A stretch of 63,752 bases of DNA, counting the filler, from Reclinomonas americana ATCC 50394 (lineage: Eukaryota): NCBI GenBank assembly GCA_048213135.1. It is 18 parts of 18 records of this genome, joined end to end, with 100 filler letters (N's around TTAATTAATTAA, not from the genome) between each part and the next. Parts side by side here need not be neighbours in the genome. Positions count along the whole stretch, not along the records: positions 1 to 18,513 come from AFZH01017293.1; positions 18,614 to 22,920 come from AFZH01017294.1; positions 23,021 to 24,419 come from AFZH01017298.1; positions 24,520 to 26,612 come from AFZH01017299.1; positions 26,713 to 28,323 come from AFZH01017300.1; positions 28,424 to 30,833 come from AFZH01017301.1; positions 30,934 to 32,483 come from AFZH01017302.1; positions 32,584 to 40,374 come from AFZH01017303.1; 10 more parts are not named here. One strand, 5' to 3'. Under the pieces are notes generated by a model. That model was given only the letters and a program-made list of their open reading frames with translations. It had not been told where the DNA came from and did not search any database. The stretch's first letter is position 1; every line of letters starts with the position of its first letter. This document shows, one piece after another, positions 3,301 through 63,752 of the stretch. The translations under genes and the position numbers were made by a program.

Positions 3301-6300
3301 CCGGCACACTCCACACAAACACATTCTCCGTGTGCTCGTCACACACCGACGTCACCGCGTCTGGAGCCGACACCTGCTGCAGGTCGGTGGTAATCGCGAA
3401 TCGGCCAGAGGTCGCCGTGGGGTTCTCGCACACAAAGTCGAATTGCTGTCGCTGGCCGTAGTAGACCACTGCAAATGGCAAAAGATCAGAAGCTCTCAGC
3501 CATGGTGTTGACCGAGGAGAGTCACGAACCGGGCAGGCCAGTGTTTGCCAACGAGACAGCATCGACCACTCGCAGCGACACGTACGACAGGTACAGTCGA
3601 TTGTTGTTGGCGTAACTGAAAGGATACCACGGATACACAGCGGTACTGATGGTGGTATCGTGTGTAAACCGCACGCACAGCTGCCACGGTCGTGTGGAGG
3701 CCACTTGTGCAAAGACAAGCCGATATGGAACCTGCCAGTCATTTGTCTTTTCAGCACATACGGAGGAGAGAGAGTACGAGAGTTGACACAGGAACGGCAC
3801 AAAGAGTACACCAGCAGTAAAAATGCAACAGGCTCAAGCGATATATTTAGAGAGAGAAACATGGACACGCACTCGAGTGATCACAAAAGCACAGAGAAAA
3901 GGAGGCTTTTCTTCACGCTCCCTCCCTCTCTATCCATCTCGTGCCGTATCTCTCTCTCCCTAACCTTCTTTCCCCGCCTGTGACTGCGACTTCCTGAACT
4001 TCATGTGCTTCTTTTGCACCACGCTCCAGCTTCGTCACCCTTGCTGTTTCCTCGTTATTCTACTCTTTCCCTCATTCTCTCTTCACTCACCAATCTTTTT
4101 CATCTCTCTCTCTCCCTTTCCTCTCCTTCCTACTCCGCCACTTCCCGATCTTGATGTGCTTCCTCCACAGCATGCACCTGTCGCAGTTCACTTCCAGCTT
4201 CTTCTCTCTTTCTCATCCCGTCAATCTCTGTCGGTTACTTTTCCCCTCCTCCACTCTTTTCTCTCACAACCTTTTCCACTCTCACTCCCACTTTTCTCTT
4301 CTTCTCTCTCCCTAGTCCTCTTCTTCTTTGGTCTTCTCTGTTCTCTCTCCATCCCAGCTCCTGGTATATCTCTTTCTCTCTCTCTCGTCCTTCTCTTCTC
4401 CTTCTCAGCGTCTCTCTTCGTCATCCATATCCTGCTCCTTTAATCTATATTCCTCGTCCTCGCCCCCTCCCTTCTCCCCTCCCTCCCCCTTCCCTCTTCC
4501 CCTTCCCCCTCCCCACTTTTCCCCTTCTTCCCCCTTCCCCGTTTCCCCTTCCCCGTTTCCCCATCTCCCCCTCCGCACCTCCAACACATCCACCGCCGCC
4601 AAAGTGGGCACGCCGACAAACCCAACCGACGGATCCGTGAGGCACGACCCACCAGCCGACACCATGCGGAACGCCTCCCGCGTCTCCAGCAGGTTCACGC
4701 CTCGAACGCGCACCGTGCGCAACGCCCCATCTGCCACCAACGCACCAACAATGTCGTGCACATGAACTGCAGACAGCGCAAGGATGATATGGGAAAAGCA
4801 CATTTGTCTAGCGACAATCAGCCGCTGCACGAACCGAGATTAATCACAGCATCGTCCATGACGGCGCCCCATTGCACGCTGAGGTCGGCAGTGAGTGGCC
4901 GGTAGCACAAGTGGTAGCCGCCGGCCCCGGCCGAGCCTGGCATGGGTACGGTGACGCTCAGTTGCGTGGTGGTGGTGCCGTCGCCATTCACAGTCTCGGT
5001 CCACGTCGACGGGCAGGCAGCGGGCGGCACGCTCGGCGGCAGTGGTGAGCACGTGTTCGCGCCGGACACGAGTGCGTATGAACCACCGAGCGGCATGTTG
5101 CCGCCGACAATGGTGAGGACGATCGATTCGCTGCCTAACACCGTCAGCAACTCGGGAATGCGCACCGGTGCCACGAACCACGGTGCAACTGTGGGCGCAC
5201 ACACCGCAGAGAGTTGGTGAGACGATACAAGAGGATTGTAGCGTGCAGCCGCGACCTCACCAACAGAGAATCGATTGCTGGCAACCGAGTCAAAGGGAAA
5301 GTAATCGTACTCGGTGCCGTCCACGGGCCAGTATCGCACACACAGCTGGAGACCGGTGCCCGCTTGGGCGGTCGCAGAAGGCACACTGACATCCAGCATC
5401 AGCGCGTTGCTGCTGCTCAACGCCGGCACGATGACCGCCTGCCCCACCGCCATGGGAGGTCTGTCCGAGCACGACGCCGAGTCGCGCACCACGACAAAGT
5501 ACTCCAGATTGGCGTCCATGCCGTCGCCAGAAATCGTCACCCGCTTCGCCACGCTATCGGCCACCAACAGAGTCGGCGACATGGACACGGTGCGAACTTG
5601 GTGAGAGAGGGGCAGGCGTGAGATTCCGTGACAACAGAGTTGTCCACAATAACATACACACACATACCAAACGTGAGAATTTGCTGGCCAGCCACATCGC
5701 CGAACTGTAACAGCGGACTGACACCGCCCGGTCGCACGCACAGTCTGCCATAGTGCCTTTAGCAACAAAGTGCAGACGCTGGCGGGAGGATGGACACCAC
5801 GACGCAACTTGTAGGTGCCGGCAACTGCAAGTGGTACCTGCAGTCCAATGGAAATCTCATACAGTGACGGCGATGGGCGTGTCATGGTCAAGCCGATGAG
5901 ATTTGGCGGTGGTGCACCAGTGGTACACGAGGTGGTGCTGCTGACCAGCAGCAATTGGTCCGCGTCTTGCATTCCATACCCTTGAATGGAGATTACGGCT
6001 TCCGTGCCGAGTGTGGAAAACACAGGCAGCACGAGCGGCACTACCGACACCGCAGTCACTGCACCAGCAACAGGAAGACACAGGCCATCAATCATCGCTG
6101 AGAGGAGACTCAGTAAACGAATGTGCTCACAGCGCACCAACATAAAACGTGCCGCCGCCACTGTTGGTAAAGTCCCGGAAGGTGCCGGAGCCGAGTCGTA
6201 TGCAGAGTCGCAACGACGTGCTAATCGCCGCCGTGCTTGGCGACACCGTCACCAATACCGCCAGCGCGGTGCCGGTGGGTCCAGTGGCATCGACTGTTCC

Positions 6301-36091: not shown

Positions 36092-39000
36092 TTATCGCCC
36101 CTCTGCCGTCGACAGTGGTGCATCTGAGTGGGCGGAGGAGAACACAATCAGAACAGAGAGGAGACTTGAACGAAGGGAAACACATCACTCACACTCACCA
36201 CGCTGGGGACGGAAAGTGCAGTGCAGCAGCTCGGCTTCCTCTTGCGCCCGGCGCAGCTCCGATCGCTTCTCCTGCCACATGCGTGACTCCTCGATGAGCG
36301 CCTCATGCAGTGGCTTGTTGCCGCGCTCCTTTTCGAGCTTCTTGCGCGCCAGCTCCTCCGAGCGTGCCGAGATGTGCGGTCTAAACGTGGTGTCGCTGTT
36401 GAGGGGAGAAGGGTCAGCAAGCGCGACAACTATGAGCGACTGGGAGAGCAAGGGTGTGTGGCACGAAACGATTGCGGCTGCGGCTTGGTGTCCAGGAGAG
36501 GAGTGCGTAGCAGGTGCGTTCGCGGACCGGCCTTCATTGTCGTCTGCGGCGAATACACACGGTCAGCTCGTTGCCACACACCCTCGTGTTCAACGCCAGA
36601 CACACTCACCCATCGCTTGCTCAGCAGTTCGACAAACTGCGCGTAATTCAACGTGTTTTGTCGCACACGTGCGTCATCCATCACCGGGGCCACCTCCCGT
36701 GCAATGTTCTCGTTCAGCTTGTTCACCTCCACGTCGCTGAGGTCAATTACGCCCACCTGCACGAAAGAGGGGGAAAGGGAGTGAGGATGGGAGAAGGGAA
36801 AGGGGGAAAGTAGAAGTGGGGAAAAGGGTGACGTGGAAGGGGAAGGGAAAGGGAGAGGAAGAAGAGAAGAGCGTCGGATATGGACGGGGTCGGAGACAGA
36901 TGAGAGACAGCGACAGCGAAAGAGAGGTGGGAGAGAGAAGAGAGGAGGGAGAAGGAAGGAGTGGGGAGAGTGGGGAGTGACAGCAAGATGATGGGCAAAA
37001 GGACCTTTGAATGCGACAGGTGGAGAAAGTGGAAGACGAAGGAGAGCGTGTAAAGTGACAACTAGACGAGTGGAACGGAGGCAATTACAGGGTAAGAGCA
37101 TGGTGCAATGAGGGAGGAGAGATGGGCGGAAAAGAATAGTGAATGGCATTGAGAAGATGGAAGAATGAGAAGGAAGGAGAACTGTGAGGTAAGTGCAATG
37201 AGAGGTGCGCTGGAGGAAAGGCACAGCGAGAAAGAAAGAATGCGATGTGCGCAAGACGGCATCGGCTGTTCTCTTGAATGCCTCTCCCTCGACATTCTGC
37301 ATTCGCCATGTCTCTTCCCCTCTTACCTCTCCCTCCCCCTCTCCCTCTCCCTCCCCCTCTCCCTCTCCACCTCTCCCGCTGAACACTCAACTTGATGCGT
37401 ATCCAAAATGTCAAAGATCTCGCGGAAACGTCGATCACGCAGCGTGCCAATCAGCTTCTCGCTTGTGGCCGACGTGTGCGACATGCGCGCCAACTCCTCC
37501 GTGCGCTGCCGCTCCTTCTCTTGCAGCCGCTCGCGCATGTCGTCCTTGTCGAAGCGACTGGCAAAGAGCACCTCGCCAATTGGTACCGACGACTGGCCAC
37601 CGGTGCGCGACTGCTGCATCGACTGCGAGCGGCTGATATTCGGCCTAAACAATTTCTCGCCAGTCACTGTGTTCCGTGCAGCGAAGGAGCGGGTGAGATA
37701 CGAGAACAGGGTGGAGTGAGGAGGGACAAGACGCAACAAGGGTCAACGCCATTCTCCACTGCAGCCTGACGCATGCGCTCCATGTGCGCCACGTGTTCTT
37801 GCTTCTCGTACGTGAGGCGGTTCAGGAACTGCAGGTAGGGGAGGAAAGAGCATGAGCGACGTCGGAAAAAGCAACACAGGACTCCATGCGTGCCATCGCT
37901 CACCTCCTCTGGGTCCTCCGATCCAATTCGTGAGGCCGCGCGGTCGCCGATTTGTGGTCGGAAAGTCACCTCCTCCGGCACCCATCTGCTCAGCTCATCC
38001 AAGCGCATGCGTCGGCGTTCGGCGTCGAGGAAGAGCTGTGTGCGCGGTGAGAATCTCCACACGCCACAAACCATTGCGTGTATGCGCACATGGTCTCACC
38101 TGCTCGTAGTGATCCACACCCTGGTCACGCGCCACCTTGTCCTTCTCGCTCACAATGCGATCCGAGTTGGCATTCACTTTCGGGTGGAACGTGCACTCCA
38201 TAAACCTCTTCTTCTCCTCCTGTTGGTGTGTGAGCAAAGCAACGAAGAAGAAAGAAACATGGAGTGGCAGAAGACGGCGCACCTCGGCCGCCAGCAGCAT
38301 CTTGTGATCGCGCGTCTGCTCGCCCAGTCCGTCCACCACACGGGCCCACATTGGTCCGCGACGCTGAATGGATTGCGCCATTCGGCTGATTTGTGGCTTG
38401 AATGTGGCCTCGGGGTCTTCCTCGTCCTGTGAGATGCAGAGAGGTGAGCGGCACAGAATCGACGCACGACATCCACGTGTGATTTGCTCACAAACCTTGG
38501 TGATGCGCTGCTCCTCTGCCTCCTTTTCGCGGATCATGCGACGCTTCTGGCCCTCACGGTAGAGGCGCTCGCCTGGGTTGCGGTAGGAGCCTTGGCCGCG
38601 CTCGCGCATCAGTTCTTCCGAGACCTGCGGGAGGAGAAGGGGTGTGAGGAGAAGGGATGTCAGGGAAATCAGAATGGGAAGGAACTGCGAGAGACCCCTA
38701 TTCCTTCTTCCTCCCAGCAACTCACCATGTTGATCTTCACCCTCTGCGCCTCGATCTCCGCCTGCTTGCGCTTCTCTTGCGCCGCTCGAGCATCCTCCAG
38801 CGACTTTTGGCGCGCCATGGCCAACTCGTGCAGGCGCACGTGTGCAGGCTTGTCGTTGGACGACGGATCGGCGCCACCGTCACTCGACTTGGTGGCCGAT
38901 GGTGAGCGAGTGCCGCTGCGTTGCCACCAGTATGTGAGCTAGAGTGCATACAAAACTAGACAGTGCGCGTCGGCCAAACCTCAGACGACGGCCATTGGAA

Positions 39001-39946
39001 TTCGATCGCGTCTTGCCATTGGCCGCGTGGGGACCGCTGTCGCTGCTGTCGCGTCGTGCGGACGCTGGCGGCGCAGCGTGGCGGCCATTGTCAGCCGTGG
39101 CTTGCAACCGCTGACGCGGCGGAGCGCTAACCGGGCGACCGGGAGCGAGGCGACTGCGCACAAACACACGCAAAAGAGTCAGGAGAGGGATAGGAGAAGG
39201 AAACCACTCGTGCACAACACAAAACTTGCGCTTCGGCGACTGTGACACGTCGGCCGATCCGTTGCTGGCCGCTCCGTCGACATTGTTGCCTGCTCCCGCC
39301 GCCGCCGCCGCTGCTGCTCCACCTGCCAACGCCGAGCTGCCGACTAGCGTCTCAATGTGCGAGCGAATGTGGTCGGTAAGCGGTCCCAACACCGCCGTGT
39401 CGAGATCGTGCTTGTGCACGAAATCGGCGGCGAGATCGGCGGGCGAGTCGCCGTCGTGCACCTGAATGGTGTCGACGCGGCCGTCGCCAATCTCCACCGT
39501 CATCAACAGAATCACCTTGCGGTGGCGCGAGGGCGATGTGTCGGCCGACACGCTGCCGTGGGTGCCGGAGGAGGCGGCGGCGGCCGGTGAGCCGTTGGCT
39601 TTCGGCGAGTTGGCGGCCTTCATCAGGCTGCGCTCGGACAGCTACGGAAAGGAGAAGAAGTGAGGGCAATGGAGGGCATAAGAGAAGGGGCACCACGACG
39701 CAACAATCTTTTGCCTCTCGGCAATCTGCGCCTTCTTCCTCTGCAACTGCTGGCGGAACTCCTCGCGATCTTGCAACTCGCGCATGTGCGCATCCGAGCT
39801 GCGCTCCTCCTCCACGCGGTGCAGGCGACGCACTTGGTCAAGTCGCTGCTCTTCCAGTTCGTGCAGTCGCTCCGTCTCCTCTTGCACCTTGCGGCTGGAC
39901 TCTTCCTCGGCGACACGGCGCTCGCGGTCCAGCTGTGTTTGTGCGT
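36092..39946 (-). CDS. Coiled-coil protein with a PFU-like domain, six TFxPxI-type repeats and an EF-hand-like motif; probably cytoskeletal/flagellar; 5' end not resolved
   Basis: Exons encode LMTVEIGDGRVDTIQVHDGDSPADLAADFVHKHDL; ATFKPQIS, CTFHPKVN, VTFRPQIG, LFRPNIS, TTFRPHIS, CTFRPQ; FREIFDILDTHQ|VGVIDLSDV; and E/R/K-rich coils. Confidence 0.7.
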
Positions 39947-42636: not shown

Positions 42637-43161
42637 CAGCTGCTGATATGATGCATTCATCATTGAAGTGATTTTCTATTCTGCAATACATGTACATCCA
42701 CTTGTCGAGTGTGGGTTTGTGAAACATGAACGGTCTAAAAGCGTCGCGACGTCGATCGACATTTTGCTGTCCAGATATCGATGTGACCAGTACGTTAACT
42801 GTAGCGCCTGATCACGCTGCGGCGAATGAAGGGGGTTGTTGCTCGTTCTAACTCTTTGCTCGCCCGCTACTCTCTCCTCTCCTTCTCTCTCCCCTTTCCA
42901 TTCTTCTCTCCCCACATCTTGTCTCCTCTCACTCTCAGTCTCTCTGCTCTCCTCTCTCTCTCTCTNNNNNNNNNNNNNNNNNNNNNNNNNNNNNNNNNNN
43001 NNNNNNNNNTTAATTAATTAANNNNNNNNNNNNNNNNNNNNNNNNNNNNNNNNNNNNNNNNNNNNTCACACACACACACACTCTCTCTCTTCGCTCTCTC
43101 TCTCCTTTCCCCTCGTCTCCTCTCTCTCCTTCCCCCCATCTCTCTCTCTCTTCCCACACTC

Positions 43162-44235
43162 ATGGCCTCCGCCCTCCAACACAAATCCTTTGTGGGACAC
43201 AAATACGCAGTGCTTTGTGTCGCTGTTGCTCCCGATGGCCAGCACCTGGCGAGCGGCGGCCATGACTGCGATGTTCGTGTATGGTCCTCCATGGCCAGTG
43301 GCGCAGAGGTGCGACGGCTGGAGAGTCACGCTAGGTGCGTAACATGCGTCGCATTCACGCCCAATGGGACGTACGTGGTGAGTGGGAGCCGGGACCAGAC
43401 TGTGCGCGTGTGGTCACTGGCGAGTGGAGGGCAAGTGCGACGGTATATGGTGGGGCATGCAGACGTGCACTCGGTTGCTGGTGCTCCCAATGGCAAGTAC
43501 GTGGCGAGCGGCAGCTGTGACGGCACTGTTCGTGTGTTGGCCTTGGCACGTGAGTATTGTGCCGAGGTGCGACGATTGAAGGGACCGGCTGACGTAACAT
43601 GCATCGCTTTCACTCCCGACGGCAGGCACTTGGTAAGTGGGGACTTGGACAAGACAGTGCGTGTGTGGTCGCTCGCGAGTGGAGCGCAAGTCCAACGGTT
43701 CAAGGGGCATACTCGCACCGTGTACTCTGTTGCTGTCACTCCCGACGCACAGCATGTGGTGAGTGGGAGTAGCGACAACACAGTGCGAGTGTGGTCACTG
43801 GTGACCGGGGAGGAGGTGCGACGGATGGAGGGACACACTTACGGGGTGAATGCCGTCGCCGTCACTCCCGCCGGTCAACACGTCGTGAGCGGGGGCGACG
43901 ACAGGACGGTGCGTGTGTGGTCACTGGCGAGTGGCGAGGAGGTGCGACGGATGGAGGGACACACTGGCACTGTGACATCTGTCGCCGTCACTCCTGATGG
44001 TCAGCACATTGTGAGTGGGTGTTGGGACAAGACAGTAAGAATGTGGTCCTCTCCGTGTGCCCACGCTCGGTGGGAGCTCGACAGTGCACGACGGGCCGCG
44101 CAGGCCGTGCGGGAGATGCAACGAGAGGATGCGGATTCACGGTGCCTGCCGGAGATGGTACTGCGGTGTTTCATGGTGGAGGAGGCCGAAGTGGTGGTAT
44201 TCCGCGGCAGCACGAATCCAGATTTGCATTGGTGA
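43162..44235 (+). CDS. Intronless 7-blade WD40 protein with conserved C-terminal tail, array gene 1
   Basis: Seven ~42-aa GH...VAVTPDG.H.VSG..D.TVRVW repeats. Tail ELDSARRA.QAVREMQ...RCLPEMVLRCFMVEEAEVVVFR...PDLHW*. Confidence 0.93.
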   Translation: MASALQHKSFVGHKYAVLCVAVAPDGQHLASGGHDCDVRVWSSMASGAEVRRLESHARCVTCVAFTPNGTYVVSGSRDQTVRVWSLASGGQVRRYMVGHADVHSVAGAPNGKYVASGSCDGTVRVLALAREYCAEVRRLKGPADVTCIAFTPDGRHLVSGDLDKTVRVWSLASGAQVQRFKGHTRTVYSVAVTPDAQHVVSGSSDNTVRVWSLVTGEEVRRMEGHTYGVNAVAVTPAGQHVVSGGDDRTVRVWSLASGEEVRRMEGHTGTVTSVAVTPDGQHIVSGCWDKTVRMWSSPCAHARWELDSARRAAQAVREMQREDADSRCLPEMVLRCFMVEEAEVVVFRGSTNPDLHW

Positions 44236-44241
44236 GGCGGT

Positions 44242-44388
44242 ATGAAAGTGAAAGGCCGCTTTGTTGAGTTGCAGCTGGAAGGTGCAGATTCGCGGTGCCT
44301 GCCGGAGATGGTACTGCGGTGCTTCATGGTGGAGGAGGCCGAAGTGGTGGTGTTCCACAGCCATGCGAATCCTGATCTGCGCTGGTGA
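44242..44388 (+). other. Tail-only duplicate of gene 1's 3' end; 48-codon mini-ORF in frame with gene 1
   Basis: MKVKGRFVELQLEGADSRCLPEMVLRCFMVEEAEVVVFHSHANPDLRW*, offset 153 nt from the gene 1 tail. Confidence 0.7.
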
Positions 44389-44543
44389 GGCGGTACAAAA
44401 GTGAAAGGCGCCTTCTTGACAGCCTTGTTCTTTCCTTCCGTGTCAACAATCCACAGAATGCGCGTGGCGACTTAATCATTAAGTGTCCCACCAATCGCTT
44501 TTCATATCATCTCTCACGCATTGCGCTCTCCTTTCCACCCCCC

Positions 44544-44990
44544 ATGACCTCCACCACTCCCCCCACTCACCTTCAAAAGACCTTTGTGGGGCACACGGGC
44601 ACAGTGTGCTCTCTCTCCATCACTCCCGACGGCCAGCTGCTGGCGAGCGGCAGTCACGACCACACTGTTCGTGTATGGTCCATGGCCAGTGGCGCAGAGG
44701 TGCAGCGATTGGAGGGACACACTGGGTGGGTGAGGTGCGTTGCATTCACTCCTGATGGCCGGCACGTGGTGAGCGGCGGCAGCGACAAGACAGTGCGAGT
44801 GTGGTGCGACAGTTCGNNNNNNNNNNNNNNNNNNNNNNNNNNNNNNNNNNNNNNNNNNNNTTAATTAATTAANNNNNNNNNNNNNNNNNNNNNNNNNNNN
44901 NNNNNNNNNNNNNNNNTGCGTTGCTTCATGGTGGAGGAGGCCGAGGTCGTCTGCTTCCGCTGTAGCACGGATCCCGATCTGCGCTGGTGA
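44544..44990 (+). CDS. WD40 + tail array gene 2 (interior lost in gap)
   Basis: MTSTTPPTHLQKTFVGHTG... runs to the gap at 44817. RCFMVEEAEVVCFRCSTDPDLRW* follows the gap. The two halves may belong to different copies. Confidence 0.75.
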
Positions 44991-45131
44991 GGCTGTATGA
45001 AAGTGAAAGCCACCTGCTTGATTCTTCCGCTTCTGCACACGCTCTCCAGCAACAACAGAACTGCGTCACGCATGACTTGTCCCGTCACTCACTTGTCTCT
45101 TTTCTCAAAGCGCTCCTCTCTTCCCGTTCTC

Positions 45132-46199
45132 ATGGCCTCCACTACCCATCACAAGTCCCTCGCGGGGCACACTGCCGCAGTGCTCTGCGTCGCCGTCGCT
45201 CCCAACGGTGAATGCATTGTCAGCGGCAGTAGTGACACGACTGTGCGAGTGTGGTCCATGGCCAGTGGCGCCGAGGTGCAGCGATTGGAGGGACACACTG
45301 CGTGGGTGCGTTCAGTCACCGTCACTCCCGACGGCCAGCATGTGGTGAGTGGGAGTGATGACAAGACTGTGCGAGTGTGGTCGCTGGCCAGTGGCGAGGA
45401 GGTGCGACAGTTCGAGGGGCATGCTGGCTTTGTGTACTCTGTTGCTGTCACTCGCGATGCGCAGCACGTGGTAAGCGGGAGTGAGGATTTGACGGTGCGA
45501 GTGTGGTTACTGTCGACGGGGGAGGAGGTGCGACGATTCGAAGGGCACACTGGTGATGTGTGGTCTGTCGCCGTGACTCCCGACGGCGAACACCTGGTGA
45601 GTGGAAGTGCTGACAAGACAGTGCGTGTGTGGTCACTGGTGAGTGGCGAGGAGGTGCGACGACTGGAGGGACACGGCGGGTGGGTGTTGTCGGTCACCGT
45701 CACTCCTGATGGTCAACACATTGTGAGCGGCAGTGCTGACAGCACTGTGCGAGTGTGGTCCATGGAGACTGGAGAGCAAGTGCGACAGATGGAGGGGCAT
45801 CGTGGGTGGGTGCACTGTCTTGCCGTGACTCCCAACAGCCAGCTCATTGTGAGTGGGAGTCCCGATATGACCGTGCGAGTGTGGTCGCTGGCGAGTGGAG
45901 AAGAGGTGCGGCGGTTGGAGGGACCCATCGGAGGAGTGGACTCTGTCGCCACTGCACTCAATGGCCAGCATGTAATCGGTGGCGGCGTTGATGGAAATGT
46001 ACATGTGTGGTCCTCGACACACGCCAGTGCCTGTGACGAACTCGACAGTGGACGACGGGCCATGCAGGCTGTGCGGGAAATGCAGCCGGAGGATGCGGAT
46101 TCACGGTGCCTGCCGGAGATGGTGCTGCGGTGTTTCATGGTGGAGGAGGCTGAAGTCGTGGTATTCCGCTGTAGCTCGAATCCTGATCTGCACTGGTGA
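45132..46199 (+). CDS. Intronless 7-blade WD40 + tail, array gene 3
   Basis: MASTTHHKSLAGH..., seven repeats, tail ...LPEMVLRCF...PDLHW*. Confidence 0.93.
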   Translation: MASTTHHKSLAGHTAAVLCVAVAPNGECIVSGSSDTTVRVWSMASGAEVQRLEGHTAWVRSVTVTPDGQHVVSGSDDKTVRVWSLASGEEVRQFEGHAGFVYSVAVTRDAQHVVSGSEDLTVRVWLLSTGEEVRRFEGHTGDVWSVAVTPDGEHLVSGSADKTVRVWSLVSGEEVRRLEGHGGWVLSVTVTPDGQHIVSGSADSTVRVWSMETGEQVRQMEGHRGWVHCLAVTPNSQLIVSGSPDMTVRVWSLASGEEVRRLEGPIGGVDSVATALNGQHVIGGGVDGNVHVWSSTHASACDELDSGRRAMQAVREMQPEDADSRCLPEMVLRCFMVEEAEVVVFRCSSNPDLHW

Positions 46200-46364
46200 G
46201 GCAGCATGAAAGTAAAAGCCACCTGCTTGAGTTGCAGCCTTGTTCTCCCTGTCTGTGCCATCAACCGACACACAGAAGTGTGGGTGACTTCATCAGCCGT
46301 GGAAGAACAGAACGACGAAAGTCGGTATTGTCAGGGTGTCCTTCTCCTCACTTGCTCCCGTTAC

Positions 46365-46918
46365 ATGTCATTCGCCAACCTCGCACTCCTCCACAGGTCT
46401 CTGGATGGACACAGTGGCCCAGTGACGAGTGTCGCTGTCGCACCCAATGGTCACCTCTGTGTGAGCGGAAGCGAGGACAAGGCGGTGCGAGTGTGGTCCA
46501 TGGCCAGTGGCGCCGAGGTGCGGCGGTTCGAGGGACATGCTGACTGGGTCAGCTCTGTCGCCGTCACTTTNNNNNNNNNNNNNNNNNNNNNNNNNNNNNN
46601 NNNNNNNNNNNNNNTTAATTAATTAANNNNNNNNNNNNNNNNNNNNNNNNNNNNNNNNNNNNNNNNNNNNCTGCACTCAATGGCCAGCATGTAATCGGTG
46701 GCGGCGTTGATGGAAATGTACATGTGTGGTCCTCGACACACGCCAGTGCCTGTGACGAACTCGACAGTGGACGACGAGCCTTGCAGGCCGTGCACGAGAT
46801 GCAGCCGGAGGATGCGGATTCACGGTGCCTGCCGGAGATGGTGCTGCGGTGCTTCGTAGTGGAGGAGGCCGAGGTCGTGGTATTCCGCTGCAGCACGAAT
46901 CCTGATCTGCATTGGTAA
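46365..46918 (+). CDS. WD40 + tail array gene 4 (interior lost in gap)
   Basis: MSFANLALLHRSLDGH... runs to the gap. The post-gap last blade is nearly identical to that of gene 3. Tail ends PDLHW*. Confidence 0.75.
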
Positions 46919-47085
46919 GGCGGCATGCAAGTAAAAGCCACCTACTTGACAGCCTTGTTCTTTCCTTCCGTGCTCTCTATCAACCAATACACAGAAGCGT
47001 GGGTGACTTCTGCAGCCGTGCGAGAGCGACGTCGACGACAGATGGTGTCAGGGTGTCCTTCTCTTCTCCCTTCGTTCGTTGCCCC

Positions 47086-48159
47086 ATGTCATTCGCCGCC
47101 CTCGCACTCCCACACAAGTGTCTGGTTGGACACACTGCCGCAGTGTACTGTGTCGCTGTCACACCAGACGGTCACTACATCGTGAGCGGAAGCGACGACA
47201 AGGCGGTGCGAGTGTGGTCACTGGCGAGTGGCGAGGAGGTGCGACGGTTGGAGGGACACGCCGATGCGGTGATGTCTGTCGTCGTCACCCCAGACGGAGA
47301 GTTCATCGTGACTGGGAGCTATGACACGACAGTGCGAGTGTGGTCACTGGCGAGTGGCGAGGAGGTGAGACTTTTGCGGGGGCACAGCGGCCCGGTGATG
47401 TCTGTCACCGTCACCCCAGATGGAGAGTTCATCGTGAGCGGGGGCCATGACCACACTGTGCGAGTGTGGTCGCTGGCTAGTGGTGATGAGGTGCGACGGT
47501 TGGAGGGGCACACTGGGTGGGTGATGTCTGTCGCCGTTACTCCAGATGGTCAGCATATCGTGAGTGCTAGCGACACTGTGCGGGTGTGGTCAATCGCCAC
47601 TGGTCAGGAAGTGCGACAGCTGGGGGAAGGACACCCTCAGTCGCTAATGTCGGTCACCGTCACTCCCGATGGTCGTCACATTGTGAGTGGAGATGTGGAC
47701 GGGATACTTCGAATGTGGTCTATGGAGAGTGGTGAAGTGGTGCGACAGATGGAGGGGCACTTGAGCTGGGTGCACTGTGTTGCCGTGACTCCCGACGAGC
47801 GACACGTCGTGAGTGGGAGTTTTGACAAAACTGTGCATGTGTGGTCGCTGGCGAGTGGTGAGGAGGTGCGGCGGTTGGAGGGACACGCGCAAGCGGTCTC
47901 TGCCGTTGCTATCACCACCGATGGTCGACACATTGTGAGTGGCTGCAATGACGGCGTTGTGCATGTGTGGTCGTCGACCTACGCCTGTGCCTGTGACGAA
48001 CTCGACAGTGCACGACGGGCCGTGCTGGCCGTGCACGACATGCAACAAGAGGATGCGGATTCGCGGTGCCTGCCGGAGATGGTGCTGCGGTGCTTCATGG
48101 TGGAGGAGGCCGAGGTCGTGTGCTTCCGCTGCCTTGCTGACCACGATCTGCATTGGTAA
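47086..48159 (+). CDS. Intronless 7-blade WD40 + tail, array gene 5
   Basis: MSFAALALPHKCLVGH..., seven repeats, tail ...ADHDLHW*. Confidence 0.93.
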   Translation: MSFAALALPHKCLVGHTAAVYCVAVTPDGHYIVSGSDDKAVRVWSLASGEEVRRLEGHADAVMSVVVTPDGEFIVTGSYDTTVRVWSLASGEEVRLLRGHSGPVMSVTVTPDGEFIVSGGHDHTVRVWSLASGDEVRRLEGHTGWVMSVAVTPDGQHIVSASDTVRVWSIATGQEVRQLGEGHPQSLMSVTVTPDGRHIVSGDVDGILRMWSMESGEVVRQMEGHLSWVHCVAVTPDERHVVSGSFDKTVHVWSLASGEEVRRLEGHAQAVSAVAITTDGRHIVSGCNDGVVHVWSSTYACACDELDSARRAVLAVHDMQQEDADSRCLPEMVLRCFMVEEAEVVCFRCLADHDLHW

Positions 48160-48331
48160 GGCGGCATGCAAGTAAAAGCCGCCTTCTTGACAGCCTTATT
48201 CTTCCCTTCTGTGCTCTCTATCAACCAATACACAGAAGCGTGGGTGACTTCTGTAGCCGTGCGAGAGCGACGTCGACGACAGATGGTGTCAGGGTGTCCT
48301 TCTCGGCCCTTCTCTCTTCGTTCGTTGCCCC

Positions 48332-49280
48332 ATGTCATTCGCCGACCTCGCATTCCCCCACAGGTCTCTGGTTGGACACACTGCCGCAGTGTACTGTGTC
48401 GCTGTCACACCCGACGGTCACTACGTCTTGAGCGGAAGCGACGACAAGGTGGCGCGAGTGTGGTCACTGACGAGTGGCGANNNNNNNNNNNNNNNNNNNN
48501 NNNNNNNNNNNNNNNNNNNNNNNNTTAATTAATTAANNNNNNNNNNNNNNNNNNNNNNNNNNNNNNNNNNNNNNNNNNNNGTGGTCGCTGGCTAGTGGTG
48601 ATGAGGTGCGACGGTTGGAGGGGCACACTGGGTGGGTGATGTCTGTCGCCGTTACTCCGAACGGTCAGCATATTGTGAGTGCTGACGACACTGTGCGGGT
48701 GTGGTCAGTCGCCACTGGTCAGGAAGTGCGACTGCTGGGGGAAGGACGCACTCAGTCGCTAATGTCGGTCACCGTCACTCCCGATAGTCGTCACATTGTG
48801 AGTGGAGATCTTGATGGGAACGGGATACTTCGAGTGTGGTCACTGGCGACCGGGGAGGAGATGCGACGGATGGAGGGGCACGTGAGCTGGGTGCACCGTG
48901 TTGCCGTGACTCCCGACGGGCGACACGTCGTGAGCGGCAGTAATGACAAGACGGTGCGTCTGTGGTCACTGGCGAGTGGAGAAGAGGTGCGGCGGTTGGA
49001 GGGACACGCGCAAGCGGTCTCTGCCGTTGCCATCACCCCCGATGGTCGACACATTGTGAGTGGTTGCAATGACGGCGTTGTGTACGTGTGGTTGTCGACC
49101 TACGCCTGTGCCTGTGACGAACTCGACAGTGCACGACGGGCCGCGCAGGCCGTGCACGAGATGCAACGAGAGGATGCGCATTCACGGTGCCTGCCGGAGA
49201 TGGTGCTGCGGTGCTTCATTGTGGAGGAGGCCGAGGTCGTGTGCTTCCGCTGCCGCACGGATCCCGATCTGCATTGGTGA
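48332..49280 (+). CDS. WD40 + tail array gene 6 (gap inside)
   Basis: MSFADLAFPHRSLVGH..., gap 48481-48580, four more blades, then tail ...TDPDLHW*. Close paralog of gene 5. Confidence 0.8.
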
Positions 49281-55100: not shown

Positions 55101-55727
55101 TCACCTATCTTCGCATGCAGCTAATGGACACGCAAGGCTCCGACAACACCATGACGGTCATCTCCAGCTACTTCCGGAGGGCGCACGCGTACATACTGAT
55201 GTGCGACGTCACGGATCGACAGTCGTTTGAGGTGAGACACCAGAAAGCCAGTTTTGTACCCTCCTTCTTCCATCATCTCATAGTCTCGCAGAACCTGGAG
55301 CGCTGGCACGATCAGGCCCAGTCCGCCGGTCGGTCGCGCAATTCCTACACGCTGTTGTGCGACACGGCAATTGCCAACAAGGTCGACAAGGACATTCGAC
55401 AGTATCGCGTGCGACAACGCGATGCCTTCCAGCTGGAGAGCAAGTATGATTTGCAAGTGTTGCGTTGGATGGTGGTGTTGTTGTTGAATGCGTGATGATG
55501 TGACGACTGACTGCGTGTGTGGGATCCCCAGCATTCCGTGCTCAGCGCTGTCAATGAGCAGCGAGACGCTGCGCCAGATTCTGGCGCGCACCGTCGTGTC
55601 GGTGCTGCGCCGCATGGACGACTTGTACTATGATGCCGACAAGGCACAGTCGATTGCCGAGTGGGACGTGATTGGCATTCAGCAGCAGCGCGCGCAGATT
55701 GAGAAGAAGGCCTGCTGCAATTTGTAG
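49912..55727 (+). CDS. Coiled-coil (UVR-like) protein, apparently fused through a Pro/Ser-rich linker to a C-terminal Rab-like GTPase with a CCNL prenylation motif (multi-exon, two gaps)
   Basis: N-part: FEQEQDFLEAQKA...FSREVINMRSILDRLIKQKQYAQAE. Exons from 52473 to 55727 splice in frame to G1 GNSSVGKS, G2 ATVGVEM, G3 LMDTQGS, SYFRRAHAYILMCDVTDRQSFENLERW, G4 ANKVD, G5 CSAL, and KKACCNL*. The link across the 52002 gap is inferred. Confidence 0.65.
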
Positions 55728-57456: not shown

Positions 57457-57488
<32 letters not shown>

Positions 57489-58699
57489 NNNNNNNNNNNN
57501 NNNNNNNNNNNNNNNNNNNNNNNNNNNNNNNNTTAATTAATTAANNNNNNNNNNNNNNNNNNNNNNNNNNNNNNNNNNNNNNNNNNNNTCTCTCTCTCTC
57601 TCCTCCCTCCTCCTCCTCCCCTCAACCGCCTCACCTGACCACCATGCTTTCCACGACCATACTGCCGACCCTCCACGAATCCTGGATCCCAGTCGATACG
57701 CACCAGCCGTTCATCGACACACAGTCCGTTCAGGTACTTGACGGCATCCTCGGCCGCATGCCTGTCATAATACCTGGCACATCGCTCTCATTCTTCAGCA
57801 CACACGCAGAATGAGAGTGCACGAGGAAAAGCCGCGCCACGCAACTCGACAAAGCAGAAGCCGCACGGGGTGCGCTCGATCTGGTTGAGACCCATGATGA
57901 TGCGACGAATGTCGCCACATCTGCGCGTGAATGAGGAGGGTGTGAGGCGAGGCAAAGGGCGAGTGAGTGAAAGAGAGAACAAGGGAGGGAGGGAGAGGCG
58001 AGGGATGAGAGACAAGTGAGAGAAGAGAGAGAGAGGGAGAGAAAATGAAGCGAGGGATGAGAGAGAAGACGAGAGAGAGAGAGATAAGAGGCAAGTGCAT
58101 CGTGAGATGAGGCATTTCTCGCACGAAAGAGAGTCACCGACGCAGGCACAGGTGAGATTAGGCAGATGCATACCAGACAAGAGACACACTCATCGTATGA
58201 GCACAGCAGAGAACGAGAAGAGAGACAGCGTGATGCACAATGCATTCCAAAGTCATCAATCACATGTTGCCTCTCTCTCTCACACTCACCACACCACACT
58301 TTCCCTCTCGTTTCCCTCTCGTTCTCTCATCCTCTCTTCTTCTGAGACTCCCATAGAGAGTGTGTGAAGAGTGAGAGAGACAAGAGAGACGCACAATGCA
58401 CGCAACAGTGATTGATCAGATGCTGCTCTCTCTCTCTTAGACTCCCATACGTGTGTGTGCATATATAGAGAGAGAGAGAGACAGAGTGAGAGAGCCTGTG
58501 TGTGTGAGAGAGACAAGAGAGACACAAAATGCAGCACAGTGATTGATCAGATGCTGCTCTCTCTCTCTCTCTCTCTCTCTCTCTTAGACTCCCAAACGTG
58601 TGTGCATAGATAGAGAGTGAGAGACAGAGTGAGAAAGCCTCTGTGTGTGAGAGAGACAAGATAGACACACATTGCAGCACAGTGATTGATCAGATGCTG

Positions 58700-58736
<37 letters not shown>

Positions 58737-59067
58737 ACAGTGACACACACACACTCTCTCTCTCTTAGACTCCCAAACGCGTGTGCACAGACAGAGAAAG
58801 AGAGATGCTGTGTGTGTAAGAGAGACAAGAGAGACACACAATGCACTTTCCCCTTCTCTCCCTCCCTCCTCTCTCTCTCTCCCGCCTCCATTCACTCAAC
58901 TTCTTGAACACCTCATAGATCTGCTCCTCGCGCGTGAAGAACGACAGGTTTCCGACATACAACGTGCGAGAGGCGGCCAATGCGCGATGGTACTCGTCGG
59001 GCGACATGCCACTGTGCCTATCAAAGTAGGGCGTGGCGCGACGCACAGGTCGATAGAGAGAGCTCAT
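56173..59067 (-). CDS. NCBP2: Nuclear cap-binding protein subunit 2 (CBP20) with an acidic/basic C-terminal extension
   Basis: Spliced: [52 protein letters not shown]...[40 protein letters not shown], the hallmark CBP20 sequence. Confidence 0.95.
58344..58846. repeat. Degenerate ~130-bp minisatellite (3-4 units) in NCBP2 intron 1
   Basis: acagtgattgatcagatgctgctctctc...ttagactccca recurs at ~58406, ~58537 and ~58679, with microsatellite-variable interiors. Confidence 0.85.
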
Positions 59068-59941: not shown

Positions 59942-61003
59942 TTACCAACGCGTCTCGGGATCAATGCCGAATCGAAAGAGCACGGCTTCGGCCTCCTCCA
60001 CCAAGAAGCACCGCAGCACCATCTCCGGCAGGCACCGCGCTTCGAATCCATCTTCCGCTCCTCCTCCATTCTGCATCTCCCGCACGGCTTGCAGAGCCCG
60101 TCGCGCACTGTCGAGCTCACGGCCGACTAGCGCGTACAGCGAGGACCACACTCGCACAATGCCGTCGGCCCCACCGCTCACAATGTGCTGGCCGTCGGGA
60201 GAGACGGCGACAGAGGTCGCACGACCTTCTTGTCCCTCCAGCCGTCGCACCTCCACTCCGCTCGCCAGCGACCACACTCGCACTGTCATGTCTTCACTCC
60301 CACTCACAACAAAGTGGCCATTGGGAGTGAGTGCCACCGAACGCACCCTGCCAGTGTGTCCTTCCAGTCGTCGCACCTCGTCTCCACTCGCCAGTGACCA
60401 CACACGCACTGTCGTGTCATCACCTCCACTCACAACGTGTTGACCGTCGGGAGTGACGGCCACAGAAAGAGCCCTGCCCAAGTGACCGTACACGAGTCGC
60501 ACCTCCTCTCCGCTCGCCAGCGACCAAACGATCACTGTCCCATCACGGTTACCAGTCACGACGTGCAGACCATCGGGTGTGACGGCGATAGCCAGCACCA
60601 CTCCAGAATAGACCCCCAGCTGACGCATTTTTTCACCGCCACACACTTGCACAGAGCTGCCACCTGTGACAAACCGACCGTCGCGTGTGGCGGCGACGCA
60701 CCACACCAATCCGAAGTGCTCCCCGAACCGTTGAATTTCCTCTCCACCCGCCAGTGACCACACTCGCACCGTCTTGTCAATGCCACCACTCGCAATGTGC
60801 TGTCCATCGGGAGTGACAGCGACGCACATCACGCAGCCAGCGTGTCCTTCCAGCCCTTGCACTTCTTCTCCACTCGCCAGGGACCACACGCGCACTGTTC
60901 TATCACCACTTCCGCTCACCACATGCTCACCGTCGGGAGTGAAGGCCACAGACATCACCGCACCCGCGTGTCCTTTCATGCACTTGGGTTGGAGAGACGA
61001 CAT
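59942..61003 (-). CDS. Intronless 7-blade WD40 + tail, second (inverted) cluster
   Basis: MSSLQPKCMKGH..., seven repeats, tail ELDSARRALQAVREMQ...RCLPEMVLRCFLVEEAEAVLFRFGIDPETRW*. Confidence 0.92.
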   Translation of the reverse strand: MSSLQPKCMKGHAGAVMSVAFTPDGEHVVSGSGDRTVRVWSLASGEEVQGLEGHAGCVMCVAVTPDGQHIASGGIDKTVRVWSLAGGEEIQRFGEHFGLVWCVAATRDGRFVTGGSSVQVCGGEKMRQLGVYSGVVLAIAVTPDGLHVVTGNRDGTVIVWSLASGEEVRLVYGHLGRALSVAVTPDGQHVVSGGDDTTVRVWSLASGDEVRRLEGHTGRVRSVALTPNGHFVVSGSEDMTVRVWSLASGVEVRRLEGQEGRATSVAVSPDGQHIVSGGADGIVRVWSSLYALVGRELDSARRALQAVREMQNGGGAEDGFEARCLPEMVLRCFLVEEAEAVLFRFGIDPETRW

Positions 61004-61177
61004 TGTCAACACAGAGGGATGGTGGAAGGTGAGCAGAATGACGGCTGAAGATGGAACGACCGGAAAGAAGTGTGCGGGACGGACACGGCATCCATTGACG
61101 TTGTCTCAAGGTGCCGGCCGTGTTTCTCGACGCGAGCGACAAGAACAAGAACAAGACTCTCGTACCAGTTGCCTTTA

Positions 61178-61207
61178 TTACCAACGCGTCTCGGGGTAAC
61201 AGCCGAA
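61178..61207 (-). CDS. 3' end of a further WD40 + tail gene truncated by a gap
   Basis: Encodes FGCYPETRW*, matching the FGIDPETRW* end of the downstream gene. Spacer is 174 nt. Confidence 0.75.
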   Translation of the reverse strand, partial: FGCYPETRW

Positions 61208-61307
61208 NNNNNNNNNNNNNNNNNNNNNNNNNNNNNNNNNNNNNNNNNNNNTTAATTAATTAANNNNNNNNNNNNNNNNNNNNNNNNNNNNNNNNNNNNN
61301 NNNNNNN

Positions 61308-63752
61308 GCACCATCTGAGACACCCGTTTGTTCTCGGCCTCAGACATTGAAGAAGTGGCGAACAGAGCGGTGGTAAACAGGGTCTCGACCACCACATTGC
61401 CAGCATCCATCGTGTCCTTGTCGAGCACACCGCGTGCAGCGACAACAACTCGTTGCAACGCGTTGGCGCCGAACAGCAGTCCGTACACGCCCAAGTCGGA
61501 AGCCAGTGCACGCAGTTCGTCCTCGTTGCGTGCTGGCAAGTCGGCGGCGACGGCGGCTTGTAAATTGAAAAGGTGGGCAATGGCAGAGCTGATGTTGGTG
61601 GGCGGCGGCGTCGTAGTCTGTACCAAGGCACGAAGCCGTTGGCCAGCAACTTGGAACTCGGCCTGCAAGCCCACCGAGTCTTGTACGGCGAAAGTAGTCG
61701 CAGTGGCATTGGTGATATTGTCTCCAGTTACCTGGGCACCAGCTGTTGCAGTTGCTCTTGCCGCTGCCATCGCCGTTTTTGCGCGAGTCGTCGCACAAGA
61801 ACACAGAGACTCGAACTCGGCGAGCATGGCCGCCAGCGAGCCAGTGCCGGCGCCATCACCGCCGGAGCCGGCTGCCACGGACTGCATGACCGAGTCAGTC
61901 TCGGCGGCACCTGCGGCTGGCACTTGCGCATACGACGCCTTGACAACTTCTGTCATCACACATGCTTCCACGCGTCGCAAATTAAAATCGTCTTCGGCGC
62001 CTGCACGAACGAGTGATATGAGCATATCATTGATCACACGCAATTCTCCCCAAGTCCGCGCGCAACAAACCGACTGCTGAGAGGAATGGCCGACAGAGCC
62101 GCACTGCAAGTGCCGTCATTCCAGCCGCCTCCTCCACATTGATATCGTTGAGTCGGCGAAGCAGCAAGGCAGTGGGGGGCACTGGAGAGAACGAAATGCG
62201 CGACAAAGGCAGATTCCACGGCTGGTCGGGATTGAGACCAGCAACTTGGCGGTCATCGGCAGCGGTCGCGGGAATGCACGTGGATCCGGATTGTTTGATG
62301 TAAACTGACAGTCGTCGAACGCCGTCGAAAATCTGGCGGCACAACGACGCTTCGATGTCCTCCAGCGTCCGTGCGTCGTCCACGGCAGAATGTCGCAAAT
62401 CACCCTCTCTCGCGTCGGCAATCTTCGCCAGCCGCGATTGCAAGTCAACGGCTTCTGGCATGCTGCGACAAAACGATCGAGTAAGTGCGCGAGCATCTCT
62501 CTCTCANNNNNNNNNNNNNNNNNNNNNNNNNNNNNNNNNNNNNNNNNNNNTTAATTAATTAANNNNNNNNNNNNNNNNNNNNNNNNNNNNNNNNNNNNNN
62601 NNNNNNGCCCACATCGAAATAATGCGTCGCGCTTGAATGCTCACCTCGCGAGGCGACAAACGAGAGCGACTGCAGTACGCGCGAGGCACCGCCCTGCTCT
62701 CGGAATTGGATCGAAATGCAACGCACGAGTGGTTCCTGTGCAGCAGACGAATGAGTCTGGCGTGAACACTGAGCACGCGTCACACCAGTACGCAACAGTT
62801 TGGAACTCGGCGAGCAGCGGATACAAGGCCGCCAAACAACGCTCGACAACAAGTGCATTCTGCATGGACAGGGCACGCGACACGATGCCCATGTTGTCGT
62901 TGAGGAACAGCTGTTGCGCGGTGTCGAGGAAGTTGCCCGCGCCACTGCAGTGCACAGCTGCAGTGTCAGATGATGATGGAATAGTGACGTGAGGCACACG
63001 AAAACACACCCAATGATTTTCAGTGCATCCACTTGCTCCTCCACACGGGGAGACATGCAGCGACAGCAGGCAGTGTGCAGCTCCATCATGCTGTTCTCCT
63101 TGAACCACCTGCACGGACGGGAAAGAACAGTCGGACGCTGACTCTGGATTCCACAACGAGGAAAAAAAAAGATGCGCAACGAGCTCAGCACGCGCTCGGC
63201 GGCATTCACGAGCACACCGTCCAGATCGCCCAGTTGCGTGCACATGTCGATGATTCGGAAACGGTACTCGATGGAAACGTGCAGCAGATCACTGCGGCGA
63301 AACGCGTCAACTCGCAGTGTCGAATGCCGACGATGAGAACAACCAAACGCCGCAACTTGCGCTCCAGCAACGAGTTGACGCACGGGTTGCCATTGAATCG
63401 AAGCACTCGAATGTGTTCCCGCACATTGCTGTGCGGGAAGAAATGGAGGGTCACATCTCCACTCTCACTCAATCAGCTATCATTCATCTCTCGCTCACCG
63501 TGCCAACTTGAACAGGTCGTCGAGGCTGCGCACAGCGGCGCATCATCTCCAAGTGCCGCAGCGAGGGGCACACGGCGACGCCTTGTCCAATGTCGTCCAG
63601 CTCCACCGTGTGGATCTTGTTGTTGTTCAGATACAAGTGGCTGAGCGAGCGGAAGCCAGAAAACCAGCGCCATCTGCAATCGGCACGATTAAGAACAACG
63701 ACCAAGGAGGATTGGGAGGAGAAAGAGTGCACGCAACGGCAGGACGTTGATC
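61308..63752 (-). CDS. Partial multi-exon leucine-rich-repeat protein followed by helical (ARM-like) regions
   Basis: FSGFRSLSHLYLNNNKIHTV, CPSLRHLEM, and the LRR cap IRVLRFNGNPC. Further exons lie at ~63300-62780 and 62461-61308. Both ends are outside the readable sequence, and joining across the 62507 gap is inferred. Confidence 0.6.

Follow-up and report, generated by a model that had tools for sequence, protein, structure and literature searches.

A second class of 5′ splice sites with the donor consensus displaced by one base in Reclinomonas americana

INTRODUCTION

Can 5′ splice sites whose consensus lies one base deeper in the intron form a regular class of donors, used beside canonical donors in the same genes? 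The question is raised by a 63,752-nt stretch of DNA from Reclinomonas americana ATCC 50394 (assembly GCA_048213135.1; 18 parts of 18 records, joined end to end; hereafter the window), for which a first-pass annotation proposed that conserved reading frames force about 22 donors with an extra T at +3, that these lie in at least seven unrelated genes, and that shifted or bulged recognition of donors is routine in this organism. Shifted and bulged registers of U1 small nuclear RNA (snRNA) are already established for individual human sites; in particular, human shifted-register 5′ splice sites were described by Roca and Krainer 2009, according to Tan et al. 2016 (PMC4856993), where they are termed atypical. 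The new part here would be the routine use of such recognition by a second class of donors. We report that the GTT donors of the window form a discrete and abundant class, second to the canonical class, with a defined anatomy and a dependence on exon position −1. Throughout, positions count along the window, a donor is named by the position of its first intron base, and a slash marks the exon–intron boundary.

RESULTS

Both junctions of NCBP2 admit only a GTT donor

The gene for NCBP2 (cap-binding protein 20, CBP20; 57.6–59.07 kb, minus strand) had been put forward as an unambiguous control, and comparison with human CBP20 (1h2t_Z) upholds this. The exon translations align with CBP20 residues 18–60, 64–86, and 88–133, and the alignment edges extend by one query residue without gaps, so that K55 falls on residue 61 of CBP20 and C1 on residue 63. 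Because the exon edges abut residues 61 and 63 at one junction and residues 86 and 88 at the other, one split codon is present at each junction. Among the frame-compatible GT/GC..AG pairs, only AA/GTTGAGT (58900) and GA/GTTGCGT (57845) give a single split codon. Specifically, intron 1 (57921..58900, minus strand; donor AA/GTTGAGTG; 980 nt, repeat-rich, phase 2) is flanked by residues 61 and 63, and intron 2 (57774..57845, minus strand; donor GA/GTTGCGTG; 72 nt, phase 2) is flanked by residues 86 and 88, the GTT donor being in each case the sole option that leaves one residue between.

Two other parses of these sites were rejected. GC–AG introns, with the cut at GTT/GCGT, would place an extra residue between CBP20 residues 87 and 88, and are impossible for the members of the class that read GTTGAGT, GTTACG, or GTTTCG. 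A cut at the second GT, at +6/+7, would break NCBP2, and no consensus follows that GT.

Intron 1 of NCBP2 contains (GA)n and (GT)n tracts within three or four tandem units of ~120 nt, and every unit ends in an acceptor-like 'tctctctcacacacag'; one of the repeat copies carries a GTTGCGT at 58406 that is not a donor in our model. A metagenome scan with NCBP2 exon 1 returned 10 loci, none of them from a close relative (best, 46% identical). The best match (L001:600-1250) lies on an AT-rich contig with in-frame TAA/TAG in the NCBP2-like frame, and looks like DNA of an organism with a ciliate-type genetic code, unrelated to the organism of the window.

A gene finder blind to the donor consensus recovers the class

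All 22 positions in the first-pass list are indeed the G of a GTT on the proposed strand, and exon position −1 is a G at none of them (0/22). The donors read GTTGCG[T/C] (12), GTTGAGT (3), GTTACG (2), GTTTCG (4), and GTTTTGT (1). Over both strands, the window contains 25 copies of GTTGCGT versus 1 of GTAGCGT, 10 of GTCGCGT, and 17 of GTGGCGT.

Introns were predicted with our own dynamic-programming gene finder, which scores codon bias, disallows in-frame stops, prefers introns of 45–110 nt, and favours pyrimidine-rich YAG acceptors. Its sole requirement of a donor is GT; positions +3 to +7 carry no information. The finder was applied to five regions, with the strand preset from Pfam matches and from reading of the sequence, and returned 99 introns, among which the most frequent donor 7-mers were GTTGCGT (6) and GTTTCGT (5). 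Ten of the 22 claimed donors were recovered exactly (18005, 14864, 13263, 11434, 10789, 5808, 23589, 27130, 27466, and 37391), and five donors of the same kind were proposed beyond the list (15127, 11178, 2112, 39704, and 36469). The motif GTT[GAT][CA]G[TC] accounts for 15 of the 98 scorable donors, whereas its frequency among the sense-strand GTs predicts 1.16 (13-fold; binomial P 9.5e-13). The sense strand has 55 copies and the antisense strand 19, and the finder used 15 of the 55 sense copies as donors, versus 0 of 17, 1 of 64, and 1 of 94 for the same tail after GTA, GTC, and GTG. With four parameter settings, in which the intron penalty was changed or the acceptor term was dropped, 12–15 motif donors were found in 64–144 introns; the enrichment P is 1e-9 to 1e-12. 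Control runs on the wrong (antisense) strand gave 0, 0, 0, and 1 motif donors in 82, 98, 38, and 163 introns.

The first-pass list, every coordinate of which reads GTT, is incomplete: the five finder-proposed donors and a donor at 32885 also look like members. Taken together, the class comprises 27–28 sites, ~20 of them independent, and makes up 15% of finder introns (15/99) and ~30% of those with a recognisable donor (16/52). Further sense-strand GTT motif copies with a YAG acceptor 60–110 nt downstream are present at 21707, 20938, and 19325 (minus strand), at 29980, 41782, and 54333 (plus strand), and at 62796, 62066, and 63737 (minus strand); these lie outside or inside our crude gene models, and some may be donors of the class.

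The alternative that the GTT sites are false donors, generated by mis-modelled genes, by multiple counting of repeats and paralogues, or by coding stretches that happen to be in frame, has to be set against these results. Several points weigh in its favour and against a class of real donors. The evidence for each junction is homology, paralogy, the reading frame, or a home-made finder. The finder is crude, with 46 of its 98 donors in neither class (many of them probably errors); its canonical donor set surely contains errors as well, it left 12 of the 22 listed donors unclaimed, and it missed NCBP2 entirely. The proposal that reading frames force the listed donors fails for 23243 (66 nt), 17168 (66 nt), 39225 (72 nt), and 63180 (72 nt), whose introns are in frame and stop-free, and for 55459, which is ambiguous, with 11 frame-compatible donors that include GTATGA at 55444, 15 nt upstream. 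At 23243 and 27130, the frame is also kept by a rival pair lying 5 nt along, a GTGCTC donor with an AAG acceptor. Nor are the sites independent: six share a single place in a repeated module, and two pairs (23243 with 27130, 23589 with 27466) are counterparts in tandem paralogues, which by our own count reduces 27 sites to ~20.

Against the artefact stand the two NCBP2 junctions, which admit no other donor; the enrichment, which arises without a donor model and vanishes almost wholly in the antisense controls; the alternative GT at +6/+7, which lacks a consensus after it; and the length differences between paralogous introns, which are not multiples of 3. The in-frame stretches at 17168, 23243, 39225, and 63180 have codon log-odds below 97.7–100% of exon windows, which weakly supports their being introns. 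Removal of the introns restores collinearity at 2 of 2 NCBP2 junctions, at 3 junctions of a CLC channel gene, and in six modules compared with four intron-free ones; 55459, 39225, and 63180 lack such support. We therefore regard the artefact as very unlikely.

The GTT donors carry the canonical consensus displaced by one base

We compared a shifted set (n = 27), comprising the 22 claimed and five finder-proposed donors and selected for T at +3 and G at +6, with a canonical set (n = 38), comprising finder donors selected for G at +5 and two donors read by hand. Exon position −1 is G in 27/38 canonical donors versus none of the shifted donors, which have A (15), T (9), or C (3). Position +3 is G in 27/38 canonical donors and T in 27/27 shifted donors (a criterion). 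At +4, canonical donors have C (14), A (13), or T (9), and shifted donors have G (17), T (8), or A (2). Position +5, which is G in 38/38 canonical donors (a criterion), is C (23), A (3), or T (1) in shifted donors. At +6, canonical donors have mainly T (16) or C (13) and shifted donors have G in 27/27 (a criterion), and at +7 canonical donors are mixed (G in 16) and shifted donors have T in 24/27. The displaced consensus proposed in the first-pass annotation is thereby recovered at positions that selection left free, with T at +7 in 24/27 and C or A at +5 in 26/27; the G at +6 was imposed.

In consensus form, the shifted class reads N/GTT-[G/T/A]-[C/A]-G-T, where N is not G, and the canonical class reads G/GT-[G/A]-[C/A]-G-[T/C]. 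From +1 onward, the shifted donor equals the canonical sequence from −1 to +6 with T in place of the canonical +1 G, so that GGTGCGT corresponds to GTTGCGT, GGTGAGT to GTTGAGT, GGTACGT to GTTACGT, and GGTTCGT to GTTTCGT.

The same contrast appears in sets drawn from the finder alone, in which −1 is G in 26/36 canonical versus 0/16 shifted donors (Fisher P 1e-6). Among the 25 finder donors with T at +3, those with G at −1 have G at +5 in 5/5 cases, and the 20 without G at −1 have G only at +6 in 17, G at +5 in 1, and neither in 2 (Fisher P 1.8e-4), in agreement with the predicted displacement of G when +3 is T and with its dependence on the −1 base. T at +3 thus also occurs in the normal register, since the donors at 4834 and 3529 (minus strand) both read G/GTTCGTG, with G at −1 and at +5.

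The intron bodies of the two classes are alike. The median intron is 71 nt long in the shifted class and 66 nt long in the canonical class; the pyrimidine fraction of the acceptor tract (0.64), the G+C fraction (0.53), and the YAG end are equal in both; and a CTNAY element lies ~19–20 nt from the 3′ end in 20/26 shifted and 20/28 canonical introns. The ends are GT..AG at 27/27 shifted sites, AG having been imposed in the choice of acceptor. We conclude that members of the class are ordinary GT–AG introns of the major (U2) type, ~70 nt long, and that one spliceosome serves both classes. A parse one base along, as TT...GN, was rejected: its 3′ end is not constant, and it removes a conserved Cys at 10789. 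U12-type introns have the 5′ end [A/G]TATCCTT, and 0/27 donors match this consensus.

A shared donor could also have been spread by copies of a mobile 'introner' element. The first 7–14 nt are identical in some unrelated introns (14 nt in 39704 and 5808; 11 nt in 13263 and 55459). However, an all-versus-all comparison of 25 introns revealed no likeness past the donor except in two tandem-paralogue pairs, and lengths and composition match those of canonical introns. Because the intron bodies are dissimilar beyond the donor, the class is not a mobile intron family, and we give the introner explanation almost no credence.

A one-base shift of U1 would account for the class

How might such donors be read? 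Against a human-type U1 5′ end (taken from Tan et al. 2016, PMC4856993), the mean number of U1 pairs over the 27 sites is 3.67 in the canonical register, 5.70 in a register shifted by one base, and 5.74 in a register with the +3 U bulged. For a U1 of this type, these numbers speak against the canonical register and leave the shift and the bulge unseparated. The first-pass proposal is supported as regards the abundance of the class, its displaced consensus, and its dependence on the −1 base; of the registers, the shifted one, which we infer, fits best.

The explanation that we prefer, and to which we give an even chance, is that the same U1 snRNA docks shifted by one base at GTT donors. The first G of the intron would pair in place of the exon −1 G, the T at +3 would occupy the place of the +2 U, and GCGT at +4 to +7 would occupy that of +3 to +6. 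Cleavage would stay at the sole GU, one base upstream of the point indicated by the U1 register. In such a register, +3 must be U because it pairs with U1 A7, and −1 is equivalent to the canonical −2, where G is not favoured, because the intron G at +1 fills the place that faces U1 C9.

The bulge differs from the shift in precisely these two predictions. In this alternative the class is real, and standard U1 keeps its normal register while one U (+2 or +3) is looped out, G+1 and U+2 pairing as usual and GCGT pairing after the bulge. Such a bulge at +3 (or +2) is known from human donors (Roca et al. 2012, as cited in PMC4856993 and PMC9311317); as here, GUU precedes a consensus that lies one base further along, and the pair count to a human-type U1 is equal to that of the shift. 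A bulge, however, keeps exon −1 opposite U1 C9, so that the canonical preference for G (27/38) should remain, and 0/27 is seen; and any base could be bulged, whereas A, C, and G at +3 are used in 0/17, 1/64, and 1/94 copies versus 15/55 for T. The absence of G at exon −1 and the strict T at +3 thus favour the shift, and we judge the bulge unlikely.

A different reader altogether could produce two classes of donors: a second, variant U1, a U1 whose 5′ end has changed, or an alteration of U6 or of a protein factor, having co-evolved with GUUGCGU, could read the class in the normal register. There is precedent (bioRxiv 10.1101/2022.06.08.495308) in the Entamoeba U1 ACAAAC, matched to GUUUGU(U), and in the Mastigamoeba U1 ACGUAC, matched to GUACGU; moreover, the shifted consensus is tighter than the canonical one, with C at +5 in 23/27 and T at +7 in 24/27. 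However, the class varies at +4 (G/T/A) and +5 (C/A) just as the canonical class varies at +3 and +4, which indicates a single reader, and both classes coexist inside the same genes (NCBP2, the CLC channel gene, and the tandem paralogues). An Rfam scan of the window found no snRNA. A variant reader is, in our view, improbable, and slightly more so than a bulged U.

The case for a one-base shift also has points that count against it. The organism's own U1 may differ from the human-type 5′ end on which the pairing counts are based, and with that U1 most sites form duplexes of weak nearest-neighbour energy. By our own count, G at −1 is present in only ~3/31 unused copies of the motif, so that the depletion of G at −1 is mild against that background and striking only relative to canonical donors.

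Phase bears on where the class is found. In the finder sets, 10/16 shifted versus 7/36 canonical introns are in phase 2 (P 0.004), an excess that, like the A-richness at −1, is inflated by the six introns at one module position; after collapsing of repeats and paralogues, ~10/21 (own count) are in phase 2, which is suggestive only. With a one-base shift, the class would be favoured where coding sequence does not allow the exon to end in G, chiefly at phase-2 introns. The data suggest such a link to coding constraint, the last exon base being there a second codon position, where G is hard to place.

In a wider reading, which is possible and which we advance tentatively, docking of U1 shifted by one base is a second way of marking introns that is in regular use and under selection, the intron itself providing the G that is not available from the exon. 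Positions under coding constraint, those in phase 2 included, would thereby be freed from the need for a final exon G, and docking would be uncoupled from cleavage at between a sixth and a third of introns. If so, the organism would offer a natural genome-scale case in which U1 docking and the cut differ by one base, a point known from few human sites would be opened to statistics and genetics, and coding constraint on the last exon base would be the suggested reason for the class. In practical terms, a gene finder built on a single donor matrix will overlook or mislocate between a sixth and a third of the introns of this organism, giving frameshifted or padded protein models, and would silently read through the four in-frame introns.

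Human shifted-register sites are rare. As at the sites described here, their cut is at GU, their U1-complementary consensus lies one base deeper, and the consensus G and U fall at +6 and +7. Unlike them, the GTT donors are a regular class with strict T at +3, a local GCGT tail, and canonical donors in the same genes, and are known from sequence. According to bioRxiv 10.1101/2022.06.08.495308, Entamoeba has 88–90% GUUUGU donors with G at +5, read by a changed U1; the likeness lies in T at +3, in an extended U preference at +7, and in the evidence that a change of donor consensus can go with a change of U1, whereas Entamoeba has one near-universal class with G at +5 and the window has two classes, the second with G at +6. 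The same source describes GYGCGY / +4C donors with a standard U1 in Mamiellales green algae and Thecamonas. These resemble the canonical class here, G/GTGCG[T/C] and G/GTGAGT, and the passages on them mention no companion GTT class. In searches of open-access text, we found no description of an organism with a regular class of GTT donors followed by a displaced consensus.

Six introns share one position in the modules of a giant gene

Gene assignments in the window are based on Pfam matches of open frames and on our own reading of the sequence. The giant gene at ~4.8–20.9 kb (minus strand) encodes a series of repeated modules of extracellular type, for which Pfam returned fn3, EGF-like, and purple-acid-phosphatase-N-like matches. 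Its modules at 11600–17700 are ~100 residues long, end in ..G.[FY].VC[YI]Q, and start with F[GT]..; we take them to be IPT/TIG-like from their look.

Six claimed donors (18005, 17168, 14864, 13263, 11951, and 11434) lie at one position of the module, after C-[YIV]-[QKM], and the six spliced modules align essentially without gaps to four copies that are intron-free at that position. Because six modules have the intron and four are without it, the intron has been lost or gained within the gene. The six homologous introns have no common sequence beyond the donor, in which T at +3 and G at +6 are constant and +4 and +5 vary. All are on the minus strand, and module collinearity supports each. Four were also found by the finder: 17936..18005 (AA/GTTACGCG; 70 nt), 14794..14864 (AT/GTTACGTG; 71 nt), 13191..13263 (CA/GTTGCGTT; 73 nt), and 11369..11434 (CA/GTTGAGTG; 66 nt). 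The intron at 11873..11951 (CA/GTTTCGAT; 79 nt) is not among the finder's choices, and the intron at 17103..17168 (CA/GTTTCGTG; 66 nt), in frame and without a stop, has a codon score below 97.8% of exon windows.

Elsewhere in the giant gene, again on the minus strand, the finder placed an intron beyond the claimed list at 15049..15127 (A/GTTTCGTT; 79 nt), the peptide being collinear with an intron-free copy of that part of the module. It also placed a phase-0 intron before an EGF-like exon at 10726..10789 (GAT/GTTGCGTT; 64 nt), where this is the sole GT donor fitting both frames, and an intron at 5745..5808 (AA/GTTGCGTC; 64 nt), where this is the sole GT donor in frame and the acceptor that makes the intron 64 nt long yields a peptide collinear with a downstream intron-free repeat. 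The intron at 6934..7000 (A/GTTGCGTA; 67 nt) is frame-compatible; the finder's choice, GTGACAG at 7006, would cost the last Cys of an EGF-like C..G..G..C motif. A weak candidate beyond the list, at 11010..11178 (CA/GTTGCGTC; 169 nt), was proposed by the finder only and has a poor acceptor tract.

Tandem paralogues and a CLC channel gene support further donors

Paralogues A (23.1–24.4 kb, 23100–24420) and B (27.0–28.3 kb, 26990–28323), both on the plus strand, are ~90% identical and have an H-E-L-V-E motif and an EGF-like Cys-rich tail; no Pfam match was obtained for them, and an exon search found no homologue. Intron 1 spans 23243..23308 in A (CT/GTTGCGTG; 66 nt, in frame and stop-free, with a codon score under all exon windows) and 27130..27185 in B (CT/GTTGCGTG; 56 nt), the latter found exactly by the finder and supported by the paralogue alignment. 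Intron 2 spans 23589..23656 in A (GA/GTTTCGTG; 68 nt) and 27466..27541 in B (GA/GTTTCGTG; 76 nt), both found by the finder and the latter also supported by the alignment. Because their lengths differ by 10 and 8 nt, which are not multiples of 3, between conserved exons, the stretches are non-coding. In intron 2, the copies are near-identical over the first 40–50 nt despite the divergence of their exons, a hint of gene conversion or constraint. Upstream, copy A has a GTATGT where copy B has ATATGT.

The CLC chloride channel gene (30.9–35.9 kb, plus strand) contains three GTT donors. The intron at 31743..31815 (AT/GTTGCGTT; 73 nt), followed by a 34-nt exon, gives a gap-free alignment with homologue P0001 across the junction; of the rival donors, GTACAA would delete three residues and a GC donor would add one. 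The intron at 32885..32954 (TC/GTTGCGTT; 70 nt), beyond the claimed list, is gap-free against a second homologue, P0002, which lends it modest support; the finder's choice nearby, GTGGTCG at 32870, costs a 5-residue deletion. In the CBS region, the phase-1 intron at 33890..33960 (C/GTTGCGTC; 71 nt) is collinear with P0001, in which D-R-I-L-L-G corresponds to the spliced D-Q-I-L-V-G; the acceptor, and hence the phase-1 donor at 33890, are therefore fixed. The in-frame rival GTGAGAGA at 33919 would lose the residues D-Q-I-L-V-G.

A coiled-coil gene and weaker sites complete the set

The coiled-coil gene at 36.1–40.2 kb (minus strand) has a repeated F-[RK]-P-x-I-S motif. Splicing of the intron at 37667..37737 (T/GTTGCGTC; 71 nt) rebuilds a copy of this motif; the finder chose another donor there. 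The intron at 36757..37391 (CAA/GTTGAGTG; 635 nt) was found exactly by the finder, and its junction completes what we take, from the loop pattern, to be an EF-hand-like loop. Beyond the claimed list, the finder proposed introns at 39642..39704 (ATT/GTTGCGTC; 63 nt), the sole GT donor between anchors, and at 36396..36469 (TC/GTTTCGTG; 74 nt), where other GTs would give introns of 35 nt only. The candidate at 39154..39225 (AA/GTTTTGTG; 72 nt), in frame and stop-free, has a pyrimidine-rich CAG end and a codon score below 97.7% of exon windows, and is weak.

Three further candidates lie outside these genes. The Ras-like gene near 55 kb, assigned from a weak Pfam match, has an ambiguous candidate at 55459..55531 (plus strand; GT/GTTGCGTT; 73 nt); Pfam on short pieces gave no support, a homologue search with the open reading frame was empty, and a PDB search gave chance matches only. 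In a gene that we leave unnamed, the weak candidate at 63109..63180 (minus strand; TC/GTTGCGCA; 72 nt) is in frame and stop-free, with a codon score under all exon windows, and the surrounding exon has 0 homologues among 1.84 billion representatives. In an uncharacterised gene, the intron at 1959..2112 (minus strand; TT/GTTTCGTG; 154 nt), beyond the claimed list, is a weak candidate proposed by the finder only. The first-pass figure of at least seven unrelated genes thus reduces to five well-supported families (the giant gene, the tandem paralogues, the CLC channel gene, the coiled-coil gene at 36–40 kb, and NCBP2), the Ras-like gene and the 63-kb gene being weak.

Composition of the window and neighbouring genes

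G+C content is 52–60% over 4-kb windows, and introns of ~55–80 nt are numerous. Between 18514 and 62606 there are 34 runs of N, each of 44 nt, paired with 12 real bases between and recurring every ~1.3–5.5 kb. The paired runs resemble masked sequence more than gaps of the assembly, and portions of exons in several genes may lie beneath them. WD40 arrays are present at 43–49 kb (43066–49277, plus strand) and 59.9–61.1 kb (59945–61105, minus strand); they are long and nearly without introns, with near-identical repeats (V-T-P-D-G..V-S-G-S.D.T-V-R-V-W-S-L), and their neighbours are intron-rich.

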